Position numbers and translations under genes: made by a program. From positions 7,403 through 71,402 of the forward strand of contig JAKSVZ010000002.1 in assembly GCA_024407725.1 (NCBI GenBank): DNA of 64,000 nucleotides, in the 5' to 3' direction. The DNA comes from Opitutales bacterium. Its GTDB lineage: Bacteria; Verrucomicrobiota; Verrucomicrobiia; Opitutales; UBA9783. Each line of letters starts with the position of its first letter. Within the stretch, counting starts at the first letter, position 1. The notes below the pieces were generated by a model. That model worked only from the letters and a program-made list of their open reading frames with translations, had not been told where the DNA came from and did no database searches. Shown here piece after piece: positions 1,048 to 10,425 of this stretch.

Positions 1048-1123
1048 AATCCTTATTATTTTTACAATTTCAGTATAGTTACTTTAAAAAATTTTACAAG
1101 CCCCTTAACGAAACTTCCCTTCC

Positions 1124-1837
1124 TCAATAATTAAAATCCAGCTGAATCGATGTAATACCTTTTTCGCGGATTAACGAACGCAACTTCGCATCTTGTTCCT
1201 CAAAACCCGGCATGCAATGCACATGCGTTACCACCAACATATGCTTAATTTTTTTGTACAAACCAGTTTCAATCAGTTTAATCACAATCGGGTATTCGCA
1301 CCCTTCTACTGCCAGCTTTAAAACATCAATGTCCGTCTGCAAATCCTCAATAAAAGCACATAAATCGATACATTCAATATCGATGGTATCGCCCTTAAAG
1401 CTTTTACGTACGTTATAGATAGAGCTTTCTTCTGAAAAGAAAACATCGTATTTCCCATAAGACTCTAAATACAGTTTCGTATTCAACGGCTTATCTAAAA
1501 CTCCCTTTTGATACAAATGGACATTGGGATTCGACCCAAATTTCTTTTGTAATTCTGCGATACACTTGGGATTGGGTTCAAATCCGTAAACAACTGCACC
1601 CTTTTCGACAAACAATTGCGCTACTTGCCCTAAATTCATCCCGCAATCAATATAAATAGCTCCAGGTTTTAATGCCTGATACCAATCGGTGTTTCGGAGT
1701 TCTTCTAAGCATCGTTCTTCACGACCCGTAGAACCCATCCATTTAACCAACATGGCTCTAGCGCGCTCAGGGAAAGCCCATCGGACGCACGCACGAATAA
1801 CCCCGTTTTCATATAATTTACGCAAAAAATGCTTCAT
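1124..1837 (-). CDS. FkbM-family SAM-dependent methyltransferase
   Basis: 237-aa ORF with an ATG start. IYIDCGMNLGQVAQLFVEKGAVVYGFEPNP resembles the FkbM-type SAM-binding core. Looks AT-rich relative to the housekeeping genes. Confidence 0.7.
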   Translation of the reverse strand: MKHFLRKLYENGVIRACVRWAFPERARAMLVKWMGSTGREERCLEELRNTDWYQALKPGAIYIDCGMNLGQVAQLFVEKGAVVYGFEPNPKCIAELQKKFGSNPNVHLYQKGVLDKPLNTKLYLESYGKYDVFFSEESSIYNVRKSFKGDTIDIECIDLCAFIEDLQTDIDVLKLAVEGCEYPIVIKLIETGLYKKIKHMLVVTHVHCMPGFEEQDAKLRSLIREKGITSIQLDFNY

Positions 1838-1962
1838 ACGTATCTTTGGTGTAAAAGAAAATCAGTTTTGTAGCAAGCACAAGTTCATACATGAATTTGT
1901 CTCTTTTTAAAATAAGCTTGATTATCAGAAAACTAATTTACACCTTTTTTGATAGTTGCTTC

Positions 1963-4449
1963 ATGAAACAGCTGGTAATTGCTGAAAAACCAAGCGTTGC
2001 GAAAGATTTAGCGAAAGCGCTAGGGGGATTTAAGACTAATAAAGCCGGATATTTTGAGCGGGATGATATGATTTTATCTTCCGCCTTAGGACATTTGGTA
2101 GAGTTGTATTTACCCGGAGACATTGATAAAAAATATAAATTTTGGACACTCAAAAATTTGCCCATTTTACCGGAAAAATTTCAACTAAAGCCCATTGAAA
2201 AAAGCGCTGAGCGTTTCCATTTTTTAAAAAAGCTGATGGAGCGTTCGGATGTATCAGGGTTAATCAATGCCTGTGATGCCGGTCGCGAAGGGGAATTGAT
2301 TTTTGCGTATCTATGTGAATTGGCGAATTGTAAAAAACCCACGCAACGGTTATGGCTTTCATCCATGACGCCTGATGCCATCCGCGATGCCTTTGATCAT
2401 CTACGAAGCGCCGAAAGTATGCAGTCGTTAGAAGCTGCCGCCCGTTGCCGTTCTGAAGCGGATTGGTTGGTAGGAATCAATGGAACGCGTGCGGTTACCG
2501 GACGTATGATGGGGAATCGCTCAAAAGATGTTGCGAGCGTCGGTCGAGTGCAAACTCCTACCTTGGCACTGATTTGCGAACGCGAACAAGAAATTCGCGA
2601 CTTCAAACCCACTCCTTTTTGGACCCTAGAAGGAACGTTTAAGTTGCACTCAGGTACTTATACGGGTTGGCTTCAGCGCCCAAACTTTAAAAAGCAACAG
2701 GAAGCAGATCGCAGTGACCGTTTTTGGAAGGAATCGGAAACGCAAGCCTTAATAACCCAACTTAATAGCCTTAAGCCAACGGATTGGGTGGTTCAGGACA
2801 GCCAAAAACTATCCAAAACAGCTGCTCCGCGTTTGTTTGACTTAACCTCCTTGCAACGTACCTGCAACCAACGCTTTGGGTATTCGGCAAAATTTACGTT
2901 GGATATGGCGCAAAGTTTGTATGAAAAGCATAAAGCGCTCACATACCCCCGTACCGATTCGCGTGCCTTGCCTGAAGATTATGGACCAACCTGTATTAAC
3001 ATCCTTAAAAAATTAAGCGGGGCTTATGCACCTTTAGCAACTAAGGTGATTGAACATCATTGGGTCAATCCTCAGTCGAAAATCATTTTTAATAACAAAG
3101 CAATTTCAGACCACTTTGCTATTATTCCAACCGAAATTGCTCCCAAGGAGCTCAAGGAAAGCGAACGAAAGGTATACGATTGCGTTGTACGACGCTTTAT
3201 TGCTGCCTTTTTTCCACCTGCTGAATTTTCAACCACTACACGCTTAACCACTCAGGCTGAGTTAACCTTTAAAACAGAAGGGAAGATACTCGTTCAACCG
3301 GGGTGGTTAGAAGTAACCGGAAAGCCAGAATCAAAAGAAGAACTGCCTGCCTTAACCCCTGACGATCAGGAGCATGCAACCAGCGAGGCTTTTCAGGTTC
3401 AAGCAGACGAAACGCATCCACCCGCTCGCTTCACCGAAGCGACCTTGTTAACCAGCATGGAGCACGCAGGTCAACAAGTGGAAGATGCGGAATGGGCTGA
3501 AGCCATGAAAGAACGTGGATTAGGAACTCCTGCCACACGCGCTCAAATCATTGAGAATTTAATCGGAGTTCATTATCTCGAACGGGTTGAAAAGCATCTA
3601 TGTCCTACGCCTAAAGCTGAACAGCTATTAGCGTTTTTAAACCTAACGCAGGTGCAAGACTTAGCAAGTCCAACCCTTACGGGCGAATGGGAGTATCGGT
3701 TAAATCAGATCCAAGATGGATCTCTGAATCGTGAACAATTCATGGAAGATATAAAGACGATGACAAAGCAGCTCGTGGAAAAGATTACCACGTTCCAAGA
3801 CTATCAAAACACGCTAAAGGTGCTAGCTCCAACCGACGGGAAACCAATGATTGAAACCTTTCGGTCGTATCAATCCCAAGATGGCACCTTGGTGATTTAC
3901 AAAACCATCGGTAACCGCAAGTTATCGCTTGAAGAGCTCGGTACGCTGATCAACCAAAAGCGGATTGGACCCCTGACCGGCTTTACCTCTAAATTAGGCA
4001 AGCTTTATACGGCTTCGCTTGTTTTAGGCGATGATTATAAGGTGAAGTTTGAGTTTGAATCCAAAACCGAATCAGCTCCAATCGATTTAAGCCTATGCGA
4101 ATGGATCGGAACCTGCCCCCTCTGCGGAGCTAAGGTTTATGTGAATGACCAATCCTTGGTATGTGAACATTTTTTGGAAAAAACCTGCGGATTGCGCATC
4201 AAACGCACGATTTTGGACTATACCTTATCGAACGATCAGTTGGTATACTTGTTAAAAAATGGTAAAACAGAGCTGATTACTCGCTTTAAATCAAAACGAA
4301 CTGGAAAGTTTTTCTCAGCCTATTTGGTGCTCAACAAAAACGGTTCTCTCAGCTTTGAATTTGAGTCCAAAGCCACCAAGGCTACCGATGAAAAGCAGCC
4401 GAAAAAGGCGAAAAAAGCGAAAGCTAAAACAAAAACAAAATCAGCTTAA
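1963..4449 (+). CDS. topB: Type IA DNA topoisomerase, topoisomerase III-like, with C-terminal zinc-ribbon/repeat modules and a Lys-rich tail
   Basis: MKQLVIAEKPSVAKDLAKALGG is a Toprim N-terminus of the TopB type, so the start was moved to the ATG at 1963. A C-terminal module is duplicated (...YTASLVLGDDYKVKFEFES / ...FSAYLVLNKNGSLSFEFES). CPLCG / C..C cysteines are present. The tail reads KQPKKAKKAKAKTKTKSA. Confidence 0.85.
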   Translation: MKQLVIAEKPSVAKDLAKALGGFKTNKAGYFERDDMILSSALGHLVELYLPGDIDKKYKFWTLKNLPILPEKFQLKPIEKSAERFHFLKKLMERSDVSGLINACDAGREGELIFAYLCELANCKKPTQRLWLSSMTPDAIRDAFDHLRSAESMQSLEAAARCRSEADWLVGINGTRAVTGRMMGNRSKDVASVGRVQTPTLALICEREQEIRDFKPTPFWTLEGTFKLHSGTYTGWLQRPNFKKQQEADRSDRFWKESETQALITQLNSLKPTDWVVQDSQKLSKTAAPRLFDLTSLQRTCNQRFGYSAKFTLDMAQSLYEKHKALTYPRTDSRALPEDYGPTCINILKKLSGAYAPLATKVIEHHWVNPQSKIIFNNKAISDHFAIIPTEIAPKELKESERKVYDCVVRRFIAAFFPPAEFSTTTRLTTQAELTFKTEGKILVQPGWLEVTGKPESKEELPALTPDDQEHATSEAFQVQADETHPPARFTEATLLTSMEHAGQQVEDAEWAEAMKERGLGTPATRAQIIENLIGVHYLERVEKHLCPTPKAEQLLAFLNLTQVQDLASPTLTGEWEYRLNQIQDGSLNREQFMEDIKTMTKQLVEKITTFQDYQNTLKVLAPTDGKPMIETFRSYQSQDGTLVIYKTIGNRKLSLEELGTLINQKRIGPLTGFTSKLGKLYTASLVLGDDYKVKFEFESKTESAPIDLSLCEWIGTCPLCGAKVYVNDQSLVCEHFLEKTCGLRIKRTILDYTLSNDQLVYLLKNGKTELITRFKSKRTGKFFSAYLVLNKNGSLSFEFESKATKATDEKQPKKAKKAKAKTKTKSA

Positions 4450-5472
4450 CGCGGTTTTGATGATTTCCCAATAACGGCGCACTCTCCACGAATAATGGGG
4501 CTGGAAGAACGTACAATCTCCGCCTTCATAATTTACCAAACCGGTTGACATACAATCTTTGCAAAAATCAACCTTTTGATGCCATAATGGTAGATTTTCT
4601 TTCGTAACATCAAAAACGCTTCCAATGGGTTCTTGAATATTACAACAGGCTATAATTTCTCCCTTTGCGTTCATAGCCAATTGATGATCAAACCAATAAC
4701 AGGTTTTAGATGGTTTAAAGCATTTTGCATTTAATCCCATCAAAAGATCTTCAACGAGGCATTTTAAATATTCTTGTGGTAAAGTATTTTTAATATATTG
4801 CATCCAGATTTTAAAATCTAATGGAATTGCGTAATAAGGGATAAGCATAACGTTCAACGATTTTGCAAATTCGTAGGCCGCTGGAATTTCATGAATATTG
4901 AACTGATACACATGAAAACGAATCATAATTCGTCCGATACATCCTCGTTGTCTCAACGTGCGGACCAATGTACGAATATTGTTTTTGATGTGTTCGAAAT
5001 CAAAACGATGAATCCGATCGTAGGATGCCTGGCTAAAACCACACATGGAAATGAACATAGACATAATTGGGCTTGCATCAAAGGTGCTGGGCAACGATGG
5101 CAAAACATTCGCATTAGTGCTTAAATCCAACAAACATTGCTCTTCGTTTGCGATTTCAACAATTTTTGCAAACTCCGGGTGCAGTAGCGGTTCATACCAA
5201 ATATATAAAATTAATTCACTACCAACCGTTAAAAAACCTTTTGCCTTTAAATCCTTAATAATCCTTCGGAAAAGCTCTACATCCATGAATCGATTACCTT
5301 CGCAGACAACAGGCGCATGGTTACGGTTCGCCATTCCCGTTGGGCAAAAATAACATTGAGCGTTACATACCTGACTAATATCCATCAACACCTGATTCTT
5401 TGCTGAATCGGGTAGTTTGCGGTACGCATTAATGCGTTTAATCGTCGATAGGGTTTTTAGGATCTGGGGCAT
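4441..5472 (-). CDS. Radical SAM enzyme with a C-terminal Cys-rich (SPASM/twitch-like) domain, paralog A
   Basis: 343 aa with an ATG start. Has the CX3CX2C motif CNAQCYFC, then YEPLLHPEF. The C-terminal cysteines read ...GEIIACCNIQEPIG...FCKDCMSTG...C. Its 3' end overlaps the topB 3' end by 9 nt (convergent). Confidence 0.8.
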   Translation of the reverse strand: MPQILKTLSTIKRINAYRKLPDSAKNQVLMDISQVCNAQCYFCPTGMANRNHAPVVCEGNRFMDVELFRRIIKDLKAKGFLTVGSELILYIWYEPLLHPEFAKIVEIANEEQCLLDLSTNANVLPSLPSTFDASPIMSMFISMCGFSQASYDRIHRFDFEHIKNNIRTLVRTLRQRGCIGRIMIRFHVYQFNIHEIPAAYEFAKSLNVMLIPYYAIPLDFKIWMQYIKNTLPQEYLKCLVEDLLMGLNAKCFKPSKTCYWFDHQLAMNAKGEIIACCNIQEPIGSVFDVTKENLPLWHQKVDFCKDCMSTGLVNYEGGDCTFFQPHYSWRVRRYWEIIKTALS

Positions 5473-5512
5473 TTTTTAAAATGATATTAACATTATCGTT
5501 TGTATGTAAATT

Positions 5513-6571
5513 TTACAAAAAGTATGATAAAGATGGTAAATCGAATTCATCGTTGTCTTCACACTGTATACGCGGGACACCTGCTGCCTTGCAGGTTTTA
5601 CAGAATTCAGACGTAGCATAATATGCCTGCAAGCTTTCTGGGGTCATGTTAAATAAACTGCCTATAGGTTTTGGGAACATAACACAAACATTTAAATCCC
5701 CATCCGGATTAATACAGATGTCCGTAAAGGAACATGTATTTACCGGTCCTCTTGGATGGCTACCATGAAACAAATACTGAGACATTAGTGTTAGATAATC
5801 TACAGGTAACTCTCGATTGTGGTATTTTAAAGCTCGTTCTCCATCCACAAGAAAAGCCCATACGGGCCAAAATCCTATATGTAACGAGCGTGCAAATTCG
5901 GCTGCAGCTTTAATTTCATGTGTGTTAAATTGATAAACATGAAATATTAATGTAAAATATCCTATACAACCATGTGCACGAAATTCATGAACTACTGATG
6001 CAATATTTTTCTTACACTGTTCAAAATCACTCATAAAAATCTTATCGTAAGATTTTTGACTAAACCCACACATGCTCAGTCTAAAGAAGGAAACACAAGA
6101 TGCATCAAATTTATCAGAAAATTTAGGTAAGAAAATTCCATTAGTAGATAAAGAAATGTGACGTTTTTTACGAGTTATGTAATCCATAAACCGTTCGAAT
6201 TCCGGGTGCAGCATAGGTTCGCCCCAGTTATACAAAGCAACCATCTGGTTGTTGTTTGTATGCAAAAAATGCTGTTTTTCTAGGTAATCCAGGATTTTTT
6301 TAAAAAGTTCAAAATCCATAAAATGACCTTTTTCAGTCGGAGCACACCCGTTGCGATTTTTATTTCCGGTTGAACAAAATATACACTTAGAATTACATAC
6401 GTTGCCTATATCTATATAAAATCCTGTCTCTTTCAGGCATTGTCGATAAGACAAAACGCGTTTTAATGCTTCAAGTTTATTAGGGATAAACTTTGATGTG
6501 CTAATTGTTTTAAGAATCTCCCAGCGTTGAGCTAATTTCAAACATTGATCAATTCGAAATAACTTATTCAT
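5513..6571 (-). CDS. Radical SAM enzyme with a C-terminal Cys-rich (SPASM/twitch-like) domain, paralog B
   Basis: 352 aa. Has CNSKCIFC (CX3CX2C) and YNWGEPMLHPEF. CSFTDICINPDGDLNVC fits C-x10-G-x4-C and is followed by CKTC...C. Roughly 60% aa identity to paralog C by eye. Confidence 0.8.
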   Translation of the reverse strand: MNKLFRIDQCLKLAQRWEILKTISTSKFIPNKLEALKRVLSYRQCLKETGFYIDIGNVCNSKCIFCSTGNKNRNGCAPTEKGHFMDFELFKKILDYLEKQHFLHTNNNQMVALYNWGEPMLHPEFERFMDYITRKKRHISLSTNGIFLPKFSDKFDASCVSFFRLSMCGFSQKSYDKIFMSDFEQCKKNIASVVHEFRAHGCIGYFTLIFHVYQFNTHEIKAAAEFARSLHIGFWPVWAFLVDGERALKYHNRELPVDYLTLMSQYLFHGSHPRGPVNTCSFTDICINPDGDLNVCVMFPKPIGSLFNMTPESLQAYYATSEFCKTCKAAGVPRIQCEDNDEFDLPSLSYFL

Positions 6572-6769
6572 ATTATCCTAAACGTAACCTATTGTTTTTG
6601 TAAGTACAACTTATTTTATCAGCCATTGGTTTCTTAAAAAGAAAGATTCTGATATACTAAATTATAATTATAAATTTATGCTAGGTATTACCCAAACCCC
6701 GTTATTCAGCCTTTTAGGGCAAAAAATAGCGGAAGATCCGTTTCGGCTGATCAGTGCGGTTATTTTCTT
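6561..6769. repeat. Copy 1 of a 209-nt perfect direct repeat (partner at 7994-8202)
   Basis: Compared base by base: 6561-6769 is identical to 7994-8202 (offset 1433). It covers the first codons of the rSAM gene (minus strand), the whole divergent intergenic region and the first 30 codons plus 2 nt of the plus-strand membrane protein gene. Confidence 0.95.
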
Positions 6770-6812
6770 GTGTGCTATTTTACATATCTGTGCGACATTT
6801 ATCCGCACTTGA
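6678..6812 (+). pseudogene. Truncated 5' copy of the 8111-9463 membrane protein gene (44 codons plus stop)
   Basis: Reads MLGITQTPLFSLLGQKIAEDPFRLISAVIFLCAILH, identical to the first 36 aa of the 8111 ORF. It then diverges (ICATFIRT*) at the duplication junction. Too short for the ORF track. Confidence 0.8.
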
Positions 6813-6882
6813 TCATTTGCTGATTCGGGCAGTTTCCGATAAGCCTAGATGTGTTTAATAATTGATAAGATTTTTTAAGATC
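6793..6882 (-). pseudogene. Decayed 5' fragment of a radical-SAM gene related to paralog A
   Basis: 6808-6882 aligns by eye to 5391-5464, the codon ~4-27 region of paralog A, at about 75% nt identity. The start codon is lost (gatcttacttgt versus gatctggggcat) and the frame contains stops. Boundaries are approximate. Confidence 0.65.
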
Positions 6883-6942
6883 TTACTTGTGAGTAAATAA
6901 ATGAAATTGTTTTATGATCCACTTTATCTCAATTACAATCAT

Positions 6943-8004
6943 TTATAAATAATACTTCAAAGCACGTAAATCGAATTCGTCGTCATCTTCGCACAATAAA
7001 CGCGGAAACCCTGCAGCTTTGCATTCTGTGCAAAACGGATAAGAATCACACAACGCTTTCCAGGAATCAGGTGTCATATCAAAAATGCTACCCATAGACT
7101 CTCGAAACATACAACATCGATGTACTCCTCCTCGTGGATTAATACAGAGTTGTGCAAAATGACATGTGTTAACGGGACCACGTTTATGGCCTCCATAAAA
7201 CAAGTATTGAAACATTTTACTCAAATATTCTGTTGGTAATTCTCCTTTTAAAAACTGCATGCCTCGCTTTCCATCCACTTGATATGCCCAAACTGGCCAA
7301 AAATCTATATGTAGCGATCGTGCAAATTCAGCCGCTGCTTGAATTTCATGTGTATTAAATTGATAAACACAAAAAATCAAACCAAAACCCCCAATATATC
7401 CATGATGTGCACGAAGATTTTTAACAAGCGTTGCAATATTGCGTTTACATTGTTCAAAATCCGCCATGAAAATTTTATCGTATGAAGCCTGACTAAAGCC
7501 ACACATTGTGAATCTAATAAAACGAATAGAAGATGCATTAACATTTGCCGAAAATTTAGGAAGATAGATTCCATTGGTGGATAACACAATTTTTCGTTTC
7601 TCTTGCGTTAAATAATCAATAATACGCTCGAATTCCGGATGAAGTAAGGGTTCTCCCCAGTTATACAAAGAAATTCGTTGATCTTTTGGGGTATGTATAA
7701 AACCCACTTCTTTAAGATGAGTCCAAACCTGTTTAAAAAATTCAAAGTTCATAAAGCTGCCTCTTTCTTCAGAGGAGCATCCGTTGCGATTTTTAATGCC
7801 GGTCGAACAAAATAAACATTTCGAATTACACACGTCTCCGATATCAAGGAATATATTATCTACATCCATCTCATGCCGATAACATACTAACTGCTTGATA
7901 GCCTTTAGTTTATTTGGCACAAATTTTGAAGTACTGATCGTTTTTAAAATTTCTAAAGCTTGATATAGTTTTAGGTGCCTACGCAACCGAAACAACTTAT
8001 TCAT
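6943..8004 (-). CDS. Radical SAM enzyme with a C-terminal Cys-rich (SPASM/twitch-like) domain, paralog C
   Basis: 353 aa. Has CNSKCLFC and YNWGEPLLHPEF. C-terminal cysteines read CHFAQLCINPRGGVHRCC...CTECKAAG...C. Shares the acidic tail CEDDDEFDL with paralog B. Confidence 0.8.
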   Translation of the reverse strand: MNKLFRLRRHLKLYQALEILKTISTSKFVPNKLKAIKQLVCYRHEMDVDNIFLDIGDVCNSKCLFCSTGIKNRNGCSSEERGSFMNFEFFKQVWTHLKEVGFIHTPKDQRISLYNWGEPLLHPEFERIIDYLTQEKRKIVLSTNGIYLPKFSANVNASSIRFIRFTMCGFSQASYDKIFMADFEQCKRNIATLVKNLRAHHGYIGGFGLIFCVYQFNTHEIQAAAEFARSLHIDFWPVWAYQVDGKRGMQFLKGELPTEYLSKMFQYLFYGGHKRGPVNTCHFAQLCINPRGGVHRCCMFRESMGSIFDMTPDSWKALCDSYPFCTECKAAGFPRLLCEDDDEFDLRALKYYL

Positions 8005-8202
8005 ATTATCCTAAACGTAACCTATTGTTTTTGTAAGTACAACTTATTTTATCAGCCATTGGTTTCTTAAAAAGAAAGATTCTGATATACTAAATTATAA
8101 TTATAAATTTATGCTAGGTATTACCCAAACCCCGTTATTCAGCCTTTTAGGGCAAAAAATAGCGGAAGATCCGTTTCGGCTGATCAGTGCGGTTATTTTC
8201 TT
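7994..8202. repeat. Copy 2 of the 209-nt perfect direct repeat (partner at 6561-6769)
   Basis: Identical to 6561-6769. Here it sits at the intact rSAM-C / membrane-gene divergent junction. Confidence 0.95.
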
Positions 8203-9463
8203 ATGCGCCATCCTGCATACCTTTTTCTGCAGTAAATTCAGCACAAAAGCGCGGCAATTGGAGCAGGCGAACTGTGATAGCTACAAAGTATCCATTTTCC
8301 ATTGGCTTGGAGAAGTAGAGGTAATTTTTGGATTATGGCTCATTCCGCTTTTATTGAGCTTCATTTGCTTCAAAGGCTGGAATGCCAGTGTTCAGTATTT
8401 TTCCACGCGGCATTATACCGAACCCATCTTTGTGTGCATCATCATGATGATAGCAGCTACACGTCCTATTTTATACGTAGCAGAACGTTTTATCAATTTA
8501 GCGGTTAACACCCTAGGGGGAGAACGTCCATCCACTTGGTGGTTTTGCATTCTAACCATTGCCCCTTTGTTTGGCTCTCTGATTACCGAACCCGCTGCGA
8601 TGACGATTGCTGCCCTGCTCTTGTCGCATAAGGTTTTTGTTTACAAACCGAACGCTTGGTTTTCGTACGCGACCCTAGGCTTGCTGTTCGTTAATGTATC
8701 CATTGGGGGAACTCTAACCCACTTTGCCGCCCCTCCCATCCTGATGGTAGCCAACACGTGGCATTGGACCACCGCTTATGTATTCTCGCATTTTGGGATT
8801 AAAACAATCATGAGCGTTATCATCTCAAGCGTACTGTACTTTTTACTCTTTGCCCCTCACTTGCATACGCTCAATAAGCGCGCAAAAATGGAAACGCTAT
8901 CCTCCCAGAATGAACAAAGACTACCGCTGGGAATTATTCTAACCCATGTCGGCTTTTTAACCTGGACGGTGCTCAATGCACACCATACGGCTTTGGTTGT
9001 ATTCGGAGGATTGCTATTTTTGATGGTAGCTCAAATCTTTAAAAAGTATCAATCCCCCATGGCGCTCAAAGAATCTCTGTTGGTGGGATGTTTCTTGGCA
9101 GGGCTTGTAACACACGGCGGACTGCAAGAATGGTGGATCGAGGCTGTTTTATCACGGCTCAATGATGCCTGTTTGTTCTACGGATCGGTTATTTTAACCT
9201 CTTTTAATGATAATGCATCGTTAACCTATCTAGCATCCTTGGTTCCAGCGTTTGCCGATCATTTTCAATTGCAATCAGCGGTGGTTAGCGGCGCAGTGAT
9301 TGGTGGGGGATTAACGGTTATTGCCAATGCACCTAATCCAGCTGGACAATCCATCTTATCCAAGTTTTTTGCCCATAACATCGTAAAGCCCCTACCTTTG
9401 TGCTTAGGTGCTTTATTGCCCACCTGCGTCACGATTTATATCTTCCGCTATTTAATGGGATAG
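8111..9463 (+). CDS. Polytopic inner-membrane protein, probable ion/solute transporter (family not identified with confidence)
   Basis: 450-aa ORF with an ATG start. About 11-12 hydrophobic segments are visible in the translation. It resembles uncharacterised putative cation antiporter-like proteins, but I cannot verify the family. Confidence 0.75.
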   Translation: MLGITQTPLFSLLGQKIAEDPFRLISAVIFLCAILHTFFCSKFSTKARQLEQANCDSYKVSIFHWLGEVEVIFGLWLIPLLLSFICFKGWNASVQYFSTRHYTEPIFVCIIMMIAATRPILYVAERFINLAVNTLGGERPSTWWFCILTIAPLFGSLITEPAAMTIAALLLSHKVFVYKPNAWFSYATLGLLFVNVSIGGTLTHFAAPPILMVANTWHWTTAYVFSHFGIKTIMSVIISSVLYFLLFAPHLHTLNKRAKMETLSSQNEQRLPLGIILTHVGFLTWTVLNAHHTALVVFGGLLFLMVAQIFKKYQSPMALKESLLVGCFLAGLVTHGGLQEWWIEAVLSRLNDACLFYGSVILTSFNDNASLTYLASLVPAFADHFQLQSAVVSGAVIGGGLTVIANAPNPAGQSILSKFFAHNIVKPLPLCLGALLPTCVTIYIFRYLMG

Positions 9464-9567
9464 GCTTCTAAAAAAGCAAAACACAAAAAAATTTCGCTTT
9501 TTTAGCGACAGTAAGCCTAAGGGTTATATACTGTTTTTGTCCTTCTAATTTAGCATGAAATGAATTT

Positions 9568-9599
9568 AAAAGTAAGGATGCTTGGGATCCTTTACTTTT
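9568..9599. terminator. Candidate bidirectional intrinsic terminator downstream of the membrane protein gene
   Basis: aaaagtaaggat / gcttggg / atcctttactttt forms a 12-bp stem with one bulged T and a 7-nt loop. A-run and T-run arms flank it. It lies about 100 nt after the stop at 9463. Confidence 0.45.
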
Positions 9600-9602
9600 G
9601 AG

Positions 9603-9631
9603 TTGACATTAAGATGAAAAACAGATTAAAT
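9603..9631 (+). promoter_or_regulatory. Sigma70-like promoter with no ORF downstream
   Basis: TTGACA (9603-9608), an exact 17-nt spacer, then TTAAAT (9626-9631). Confidence 0.4.
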
Positions 9632-10143
9632 TTATCTTAATTTGTATACCATATGCAGTGGACAAAATTATTTTATCCCAACAAGATTTTTTGTCAAGCT
9701 CTTTATAAGAGGGGGATGCTTTGGGGGGACTTTCCCTATTTGTTTTTTATCTGCTAAACGGATCCATTGTACATCACCGAGAAAACACTGATGAAATACT
9801 CTTTGTGCCTCTGTTTTTTATCGACATGGATTAACAATTACCGTATGATACGGTATTGCCTTTTCTGATTCTGCTTTTCCAAGAAAAAGTTTATTTCAAA
9901 AAAACCATCCTGTCGAGCCTTTTTAAGATAAATCCTAAAAGGATCCTATGGGTTGATTGGGATTTTCCGTCTTTATAAATGAAGGTTAAAACAAGCAAAC
10001 TTACTGTTTTCGCTTGATAGCCCTGTAAAAAAGCAACCGCTCCCAAAGAGGGCATGGGGCATTATAGGTTTATCGTTTAAAAAACCAATTTTTTTAGAAA
10101 AGGCTCATAGTAAAAAGAGAACCTATGAACTTTCGCTTTTTTA

Positions 10144-10172
10144 TTGACATAGGCACATAGGTTGAATAAAAT
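10144..10172 (+). promoter_or_regulatory. Sigma70-like promoter with no ORF downstream
   Basis: TTGACA (10144-10149), an exact 17-nt spacer, then TAAAAT (10167-10172). Confidence 0.5.
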
Positions 10173-10228
10173 TACCTATGTAAGGAAGCAATCCTCCAAT
10201 TAATGGAATTTTTGTCCCTCAAGCATTC

Positions 10229-10270
10229 ATAGGCTTACAGCAGGTGATAATTGGTAAATTTATCATGTTC
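10229..10270 (+). repeat. Non-coding element related to the 21868-21948 and 22251-22332 elements (copy U3)
   Basis: ataggcttac (10229-10238) and gtgataat (10244-10251) are exact matches to 22287-22296 and 22297-22304. A related atcatgttc / atcatctcc tail follows. Confidence 0.45.
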
Positions 10271-10363
10271 TTCTTGGTCTTTTTTAGGAGATTCTCATAA
10301 AGATTTTAACCAATCCTTATCGAACAGTCAAGGACAAAAGCGGAGCAAGAACCCTAACGAACA

Positions 10364-10402
10364 TTAAAAAATATCGCCTAGAGGGAAACCTTTAGGCGAT
10401 AT
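10364..10402 (-). terminator. Rho-independent terminator of ald (possibly bidirectional)
   Basis: atatcgcctagagg-GAAA-cctttaggcgatat forms a 14-bp stem (one G-U pair) with a GAAA tetraloop. On the minus strand it is followed by TTTTTT. It lies 24 nt downstream of the ald stop at 10426. Confidence 0.7.
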
Positions 10403-10425
10403 TCATAGGTTTTAATAGCTTATGC

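Follow-up and report, generated by a model that had tools for sequence, protein, structure and literature searches.

Tandem duplication followed by loss of the redundant parts is well established in bacteria, the loss proceeding by illegitimate recombination between short repeats (microhomology), a mechanism that is independent of RecA. Short-tract ectopic gene conversion between paralogous repeats, which contributes to the concerted evolution of duplicated genes, is equally well established. Here we describe a locus that bears marks of both. It lies in a 64-kb stretch of DNA (hereafter the window, meaning the whole stretch that was analysed) from the metagenome-assembled genome GCA_024500545.1 of an Opitutales (Verrucomicrobia) gut bacterium, where it is part of an 83-kb contig, and contains three intact radical SAM genes (rSAM-A, rSAM-B and rSAM-C) and an intact transporter gene (T). 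Between rSAM-B and rSAM-C lies a scar made of the truncated start of a second transporter gene (T') and a decayed fragment of an rSAM-A-type gene (A'), and two copies of a perfect 209-nucleotide (nt) repeat cover the divergent promoter region upstream of each transporter start. On balance, and with moderate confidence only, we read this arrangement as what remains of an old tandem duplication, the ancestral order having been rSAM-A, rSAM-X, divergent promoter, transporter. A larger unit would have been duplicated, a deletion would later have removed part of it, and gene conversion would have followed.

Two head-to-tail units and the scar between them

The self-alignment of the locus that had been proposed in a preliminary description of this DNA was run with blastn and MAFFT, and it resolved collinear head-to-tail units. 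Blastn returned one collinear alignment, of 5363-6789 with 6780-8222, at 71.9% identity over 1456 columns. The two units have the same orientation and share 10 nt (TTACATAYCT) at their boundary. Judged from its sequence, the locus is a head-to-tail tandem duplication. The first unit (5363-6789) comprises rSAM-A codons 36 to 1, a spacer, rSAM-B, the promoter tract and transporter codons 1 to 37. rSAM-A (4441-5472, minus strand, 343 residues) is the intact gene of the type from which A' comes; rSAM-B (5513-6571, 352 residues) and rSAM-C (6943-8004, 353 residues), both on the minus strand, are intact paralogues, and T (8111-9463, plus strand) encodes a membrane protein of 450 residues. No further copies of the tract or of the rSAM genes were found elsewhere in the window.

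Unit 1 ends and unit 2 begins with the same stretch, TTACATATCT (6780-6789), where transporter codons 35-37 run into the antisense of A' at about codon 36. The scar reads TTACATATCTG at this point; the corresponding sequences are TTACATACCTG in rSAM-A (5363-5373), CTGCATACCTT in T and CTACATACCTT in the T gene of Verrucomicrobia bacterium UBA3869 (L001), a sister species. A 9-nt microhomology, TACATACCT, is common to transporter codons 35-37 and to A codons 36-34 read in antisense; A and the L001 T gene both contain it. Microhomology at the junction points to RecA-independent illegitimate recombination between short direct repeats. Because the junction lies inside this 9-10-nt microhomology, codon 35 of T' (TTA) may derive from the A side. 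The preliminary description had placed the fusion between transporter codon ~37 and rSAM-A' codon ~30; the transporter side agrees with what we find, whereas the A' side has to be moved to codon ~36.

A' occupies 6780-6882 on the minus strand and corresponds to codons ~36 to 3 of an rSAM-A-type gene. Over A codons 3-36 it matches A at 77 of 109 aligned bases (71%). ACA now stands in place of its ATG start codon, one nucleotide has been inserted, and a TAG stop lies in register, so that where A has QILKTLSTIKRINAYRKLPDSAKNQVLMDISQVC, A' in register encodes KILKILSIIKHI, a stop and then AYRKLPESANDQVRINVAQIC. The conceptual peptide shares 20 of its 34 residues with A. Homology to intact A, together with these disabling lesions, identifies A' as a pseudogene remnant. 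The remnant had been recognized before, with its lost start codon, in-frame stops and its end at 6882; its identity to A had been put at ~75%, and its start too far in, at ~6793.

T' (6678-6812, plus strand) is a 44-codon open reading frame (ORF) that, on translation, begins as the transporter and reads on into antisense A'. A tblastn search with T covers T' residues 1-43 at 88%, and the peptide has one hydrophobic stretch, at residues 24-41. Exactly as had been listed in the preliminary description, codons 31-35 all differ from T and the ORF ends in ICATFIRT followed by a stop; its last eight codons are antisense A' sequence. Both copies nevertheless encode LCAILH at codons 31-36, where all six differences are synonymous. 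This run had been taken as a sign of purifying selection on the duplicated transporter, and it does agree with long selection, although it is weak evidence alone. With L001 as the outgroup, intact T is the branch that changed in codons 31 and 34 and at the third base of codon 35. The T' branch is then left with only two or three changes (TGC>TGT, GCC>GCT and perhaps CTA>TTA), all of them C-to-T. Polarizing the changes in this way presupposes that the duplication came after the divergence from L001, contrary to the history we favour.

T' retains the upstream region, the start codon and the first hydrophobic segment of the transporter, and a scan detected no terminator-like site between 6812 and 6943. 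With the start signals of the transporter in front of it and no terminator-like site behind it, T' is probably transcribed and perhaps translated. Selection on T' itself, or on a transcript running antisense towards rSAM-C, could be imagined to maintain a micro-protein or antisense RNA and to keep the first 30 codons and the promoter identical to those of the transporter. The retained start and upstream region, the lack of a terminator-like site in that interval and the purely synonymous differences in codons 31-36 would fit this explanation. However, T' is absent from every other genome covered by an exact-protein look-up and a search of 5.8 billion proteins, and no gene with its product is on record or has been called here. 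T' alone has no Pfam match, and its last eight codons are antisense A'; moreover, selection does not give zero synonymous and intergenic differences. We consider a selected T' the least probable of the explanations discussed here. Nothing in the sequence indicates selection on T', which would be a by-product, and both A' and T' should be annotated as remnants, not genes.

The 209-nt identical tract

The perfect repeat that had been reported at this locus, and its content, were confirmed: 6561-6769 is identical to 7994-8202 base for base over 209 nt, with mismatches at the flanking positions 6560 and 6770. Each copy consists of 11 nt of rSAM-B or rSAM-C coding sequence, the 106-nt divergent intergenic region and 92 nt of transporter sequence (30 codons plus 2 nt). 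The first copy thus spans the starts of rSAM-B and T', and the start codons of rSAM-B and rSAM-C lie within the tract at 6571 and 8004, respectively. Outside the tract, the MAFFT alignment of the units shows 65% identity, and the next-longest exact run is 16 nt. The two copies differ at 0 of 209 positions within the tract and at 7 of the 20 positions that follow (Fisher P = 1e-8). Given the 65% identity of the flanks and a longest other run of 16 nt, a run of 209 nt is far beyond chance. Selection cannot erase every intergenic and synonymous difference, which argues that the tract is a recent copy event. Of the two causes proposed earlier for the homogenized tract, recent gene conversion or selection, these results strongly support the former.

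We also examined the direction of the transfer. In its transporter part, 6 of 77 sites of the tract are different from L001 T, much as in the rest of T, and a tract descended from an anciently diverged T' would give this number with P = 0.0015; the intergenic part could not be aligned to L001. Since the tract resembles T when compared with the sister genome, the transporter-side copy (7994-8202) was probably the donor and 6561-6769 the recipient.

The nature of the transporter raised a specific candidate for the content of the tract. T matches PF07399, a putative Na+/H+ antiporter family, over profile positions 2-417 of 419 (523.6 bits), and we take PF07399 to be the former DUF1646. A Na+ riboswitch, the DUF1646 motif RNA, is known upstream of DUF1646-type transporter genes (PMC9337991), a setting similar to that of the tract upstream of T. 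A search of 5300-8400 against Rfam at E ≤ 1 returned no family matches, and the RNA of the tract folded no better than shuffled sequences (z = -0.2, -0.5 and +0.4); together these results show that the tract is not this riboswitch or another known RNA, and they speak against structured RNA more generally. Scans for sigma-70 promoters and terminators found nothing inside 6572-6677 or 6812-6943, a result that says nothing about a verrucomicrobial promoter. A short motif, TCTGATATACTA, lies just before the transporter start in both the window and L001 and may be part of the transporter promoter. The transporter N-termini themselves differ, being MLGITQ in the window (8111-8125) and MPVASDSITNFQQ in L001 (6305-6340), a difference that amounts to an indel of ~12-15 nt just after a shared GCTAG motif.

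A 209-nt repeat should be viewed as a place where assembly is likely to be ambiguous and copy number to vary. We weighed whether the perfect identity, or the number of units, could have been produced by metagenome assembly or polishing. Window 1105-5874 is reproduced without a difference by an independent Logan contig (L013, run SRR17543914), in which rSAM-A is 100% identical; that contig ends at 5874, short of the scar, and this and the metagenomic source leave room for such an effect. On the other hand, collapse cannot yield the T'/A' junction or the 30-35% divergence of the flanks. With the tract on either side of 6770-7993, no linear path other than the assembled order can include this segment. 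A short-read consensus, for its part, erases no differences over 209 nt unless the copies were nearly identical already. Assembly could account only for the perfect identity or for a higher copy number, and we regard it as a very unlikely explanation. A more far-reaching possibility is that rSAM-C, lying between the two perfect repeats, is prone to recombination and is deleted or amplified in the population, and that a transcript from the T' promoter antisense to rSAM-C, or the 44-residue membrane peptide, tunes the array. In that case the scar would have a working role in regulation and would not be debris, a speculation to which we give less credence even than to an assembly effect.

Age of the duplication and order of events

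To place the duplication in time, we compared the intact paralogues with each other and with relatives. rSAM-B and rSAM-C are 61% identical as proteins, in line with the ~60% estimated in the preliminary description, and 70% identical as DNA. The proportions of nonsynonymous and synonymous sites that differ are 0.23 (pN) and 0.72 (pS), and the ratio of the corresponding rates (dN/dS) of ~0.1 indicates that both genes are under purifying selection. At four-fold degenerate sites they differ by 0.68, close to the saturation level of 0.71, whereas divergence between the window and L001 at such sites is 0.21 for topoisomerase III, 0.35 for T and 0.44 for rSAM-A. With B-C sites saturated and the window-L001 values only 0.21-0.44, the B/C split is much older than the split between the sister species. 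The unevenness of the latter values across neighbouring genes of 1891-9463 is a separate observation; it suggests recombination between lineages or differing mutation histories.

Intact second copies were sought by searching rSAM-C and rSAM-A against the 5.8 billion proteins, T against one genome per species (185,579 species genomes) and T', B, C, A and T by exact-protein look-up. B and C are each other's nearest relatives in the protein set (the next match to rSAM-C is at 42%), and no A-type protein there falls between 50% and 79% identity to A. L001 was the only close relative in the T scan, its transporter being 91% identical as a protein and its aligned regions 86-92% identical to the window as DNA; several Opitutales genomes came next, at 63-70%. 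In L001 and in a second contig of the same species (L012), the order is topoisomerase III, an rSAM-A ortholog (79% identical to A in L001) and a divergent T. A and T are intact and adjacent there, and rSAM-B, rSAM-C and the scar are absent. These contigs therefore show a state without any X-type rSAM gene and not the single-copy ancestor A-X-T. In more distant Opitutales, topoisomerase III adjoins the transporter and no rSAM gene lies beside T. The comparison with related genomes suggested in the preliminary description thus did not uncover an intact second transporter or rSAM-A.

A' itself bears on what the duplicated unit once contained. Its differences from A at codon positions 1, 2 and 3 (0.28, 0.17 and 0.43) resemble those of the intact pair B-C (0.30, 0.19 and 0.50). 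When neutral mutation of A was simulated to the same number of differences, the observed BLOSUM score of A' was reached at P = 0.005, or at P = 0.03 if four of the differences are counted as synonymous changes on the A branch. The spacers just beyond the starts of A (5473-5512, 40 nt) and A' (6883-6942, 60 nt, up to the rSAM-C stop codon) have no similarity left and score below the shuffle mean (z = -0.8), whereas 40-nt pieces of A' score z = 6-11 against A. Had A' been neutral since the B/C split, conservation of this degree would be expected at P = 3e-5 to 5e-13. The coding-type profile, the randomized neighbouring spacer and P ≤ 3e-5 together argue that A' has not been neutral since B and C separated.

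From these observations we propose the following history. The duplicated unit would at first have included second copies of A and of the transporter in full, both of which would have been under protein-level selection for most of the time since the B/C split. Recombination between the short TACATACCT repeats of T' and A', independent of RecA, would then have deleted ~2 kb or more, after which the remaining stubs would have decayed, with loss of the start codon and gain of a frameshift and a stop. The latest event would have been a short conversion in which the transporter-side unit was the donor of the promoter tract and the B-side unit the recipient, removing every difference between B codon 4 and T' codon 31. 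The promoter copy on the B side must still drive rSAM-B, and probably also rSAM-A 40 nt downstream.

An alternative history dispenses with the deletion. A single microhomology-mediated tandem duplication of ~1.42 kb, from A codon 36 to transporter codon 35-37, could have made the junction directly; A' and T' would then never have been parts of complete genes, and what similarity they keep to A and T would stem from later conversion patches, the 209-nt tract being the latest. As such a duplication predicts, the units meet directly: they overlap by 10 nt and nothing is inserted between them. The microhomology is present in both A and L001 T, and conversion demonstrably occurs at this locus. If the sister is taken as outgroup, the exclusively C-to-T changes on the T' branch look like neutral decay, and the conservation of A' is compatible with neutrality over roughly the window-sister divergence time (P = 0.07-0.18). 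Against this, at least two more conversions would be needed, of A onto A' and of an older T onto T', and only coincidence would explain why the patch on A' stops no more than 8 nt from the boundary between coding and non-coding sequence. The codon-position and amino-acid conservation of A' exceeds the neutral expectation (P = 0.005-0.03), and six out of six T' differences are synonymous. A one-step duplication without later deletion was our first reading of the locus. The saturation between B and C, the coding-type profile of A' at 71% identity and the randomized spacer led us to downgrade it, and we now regard it as possible but unlikely.

The larger duplication of rSAM-A, rSAM-B/C, promoter and transporter with a later deletion, which the preliminary description had put forward, is thus favoured by the codon profile of A', by the contrast with the spacer and by P ≤ 3e-5, and no part of that description's reading was contradicted. 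Several points weigh against it. The searches described above turned up no genome in which a second A or a second transporter is intact, and a one-step duplication with later conversion patches would produce an identical map. L001 and L012 lack B, C and the scar, which means that their lineage lost the whole block or that the lineage of the window gained it. The codon-level signal of A' fades (P = 0.13) if at least 8 of the 29 differences are placed on the selected A branch, and the evidence from T' comes from six codons. A conversion between units of ~65-70% identity that stops 10-20 nt short of where homology ends is not easy to explain mechanistically. Finally, the window comes from a metagenome-assembled genome in which the scar is not covered by the independent Logan contig.

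The distribution among relatives also admits a foreign origin, in which a block with B or C and the stubs came from an unsampled related lineage and integrated beside the resident locus, the differences being those between orthologues. Such an origin predicts the coding-type divergence of the stubs. It accords with a sister species that has none of B, C or the scar, with distant Opitutales in which topoisomerase III stands next to the transporter without an rSAM gene, and with the uneven synonymous divergence from the sister (0.21, 0.35 and 0.44). However, B and C are mutual closest relatives with the next protein at 42%, so no donor is visible among the 5.8 billion proteins, and the T'/A' junction and the 209-nt identity would still require the same deletion and conversion. 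We therefore consider a foreign origin improbable, more so than the one-step duplication, and retain the larger duplication with later deletion as our preferred history.

The rSAM family, neighbouring genes and comparison with known systems

All three rSAM proteins contain the CX3CX2C motif (CNAQCYFC in A, CNSKCIFC in B and CNSKCLFC in C) and match PF04055 above its gathering score of 29.5 bits (29.6, 44.6 and 33.0 bits for A, B and C). Among the named NCBIfam radical SAM subfamilies (TIGR04317, MoaA and the SPASM maturases), none reaches its curated cutoff, the best score being 69 bits against 380. The nearest curated model is TIGR04317, the tungsten-cofactor oxidoreductase maturase, with which A, B and C have the CX3CX2C motif and PF04055 in common; they score only 63-69 bits against its 380-bit cutoff. 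A sequence search of solved structures with rSAM-B gave no match. By these matches, rSAM-A, rSAM-B and rSAM-C belong to a small uncharacterized family with a tendency to form three tandem paralogues. Two unrelated contigs (L010, 5168-9032, and L011, 1-1927) also carry three tandem members. The second and third paralogues of L010 lie 750 nt apart with no called gene in between, and this gap might be another scar.

The public annotation gives rSAM-C 308 residues, starting at Met46 and leaving out window 7870-8004. Residues 1-45 are conserved with rSAM-B and have a coding-type divergence profile, and the 353-residue ORF from 8004, inside the identical tract, is therefore the better model; the annotated start should be moved upstream to 8004.

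Elsewhere around the locus, topoisomerase III (1891-4449, plus strand) and rSAM-A have convergent 3' ends that overlap by 9 nt (4441-4449). On the other side, the ~960 nt 3' of T (9464-10425) contain no ORF of at least 60 residues and no Rfam match; L001 has a gene for a 279-residue short-chain dehydrogenase in this position, of which no trace is left in the window. An FkbM-type methyltransferase gene (PF05050; window 1124-1837) has no counterpart in L001, in which the flanks are contiguous (alignment gap 1181-1788).

Taken together, these data indicate that the scar is real and that it is a product of ordinary genome evolution; it represents no new mechanism or kind of system. Its value lies in showing, in compact form, how a bacterium assembles a paralogue array and cuts it back, with duplication, probable long co-existence, a probable microhomology deletion with dated stubs, and conversion of a promoter at one locus. 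As in bacterial duplication and trimming described elsewhere, there are collinear units, a junction within a 9-10-nt direct repeat, gene stubs and a new complete paralogue with its own copy of the promoter; here the evidence, from one genome, favours a later deletion over the duplication itself as the origin of the junction. The comparison with ectopic gene conversion is similar. The flanks are more diverged than is usual, the right edge lies 10-20 nt from the end of homology, and the converted block is mainly promoter. In its other features, the tract resembles a typical conversion product: a perfect block with sharp edges, set in paralogous surroundings of ~65% identity, with a probable donor polarity suggested by an outgroup.

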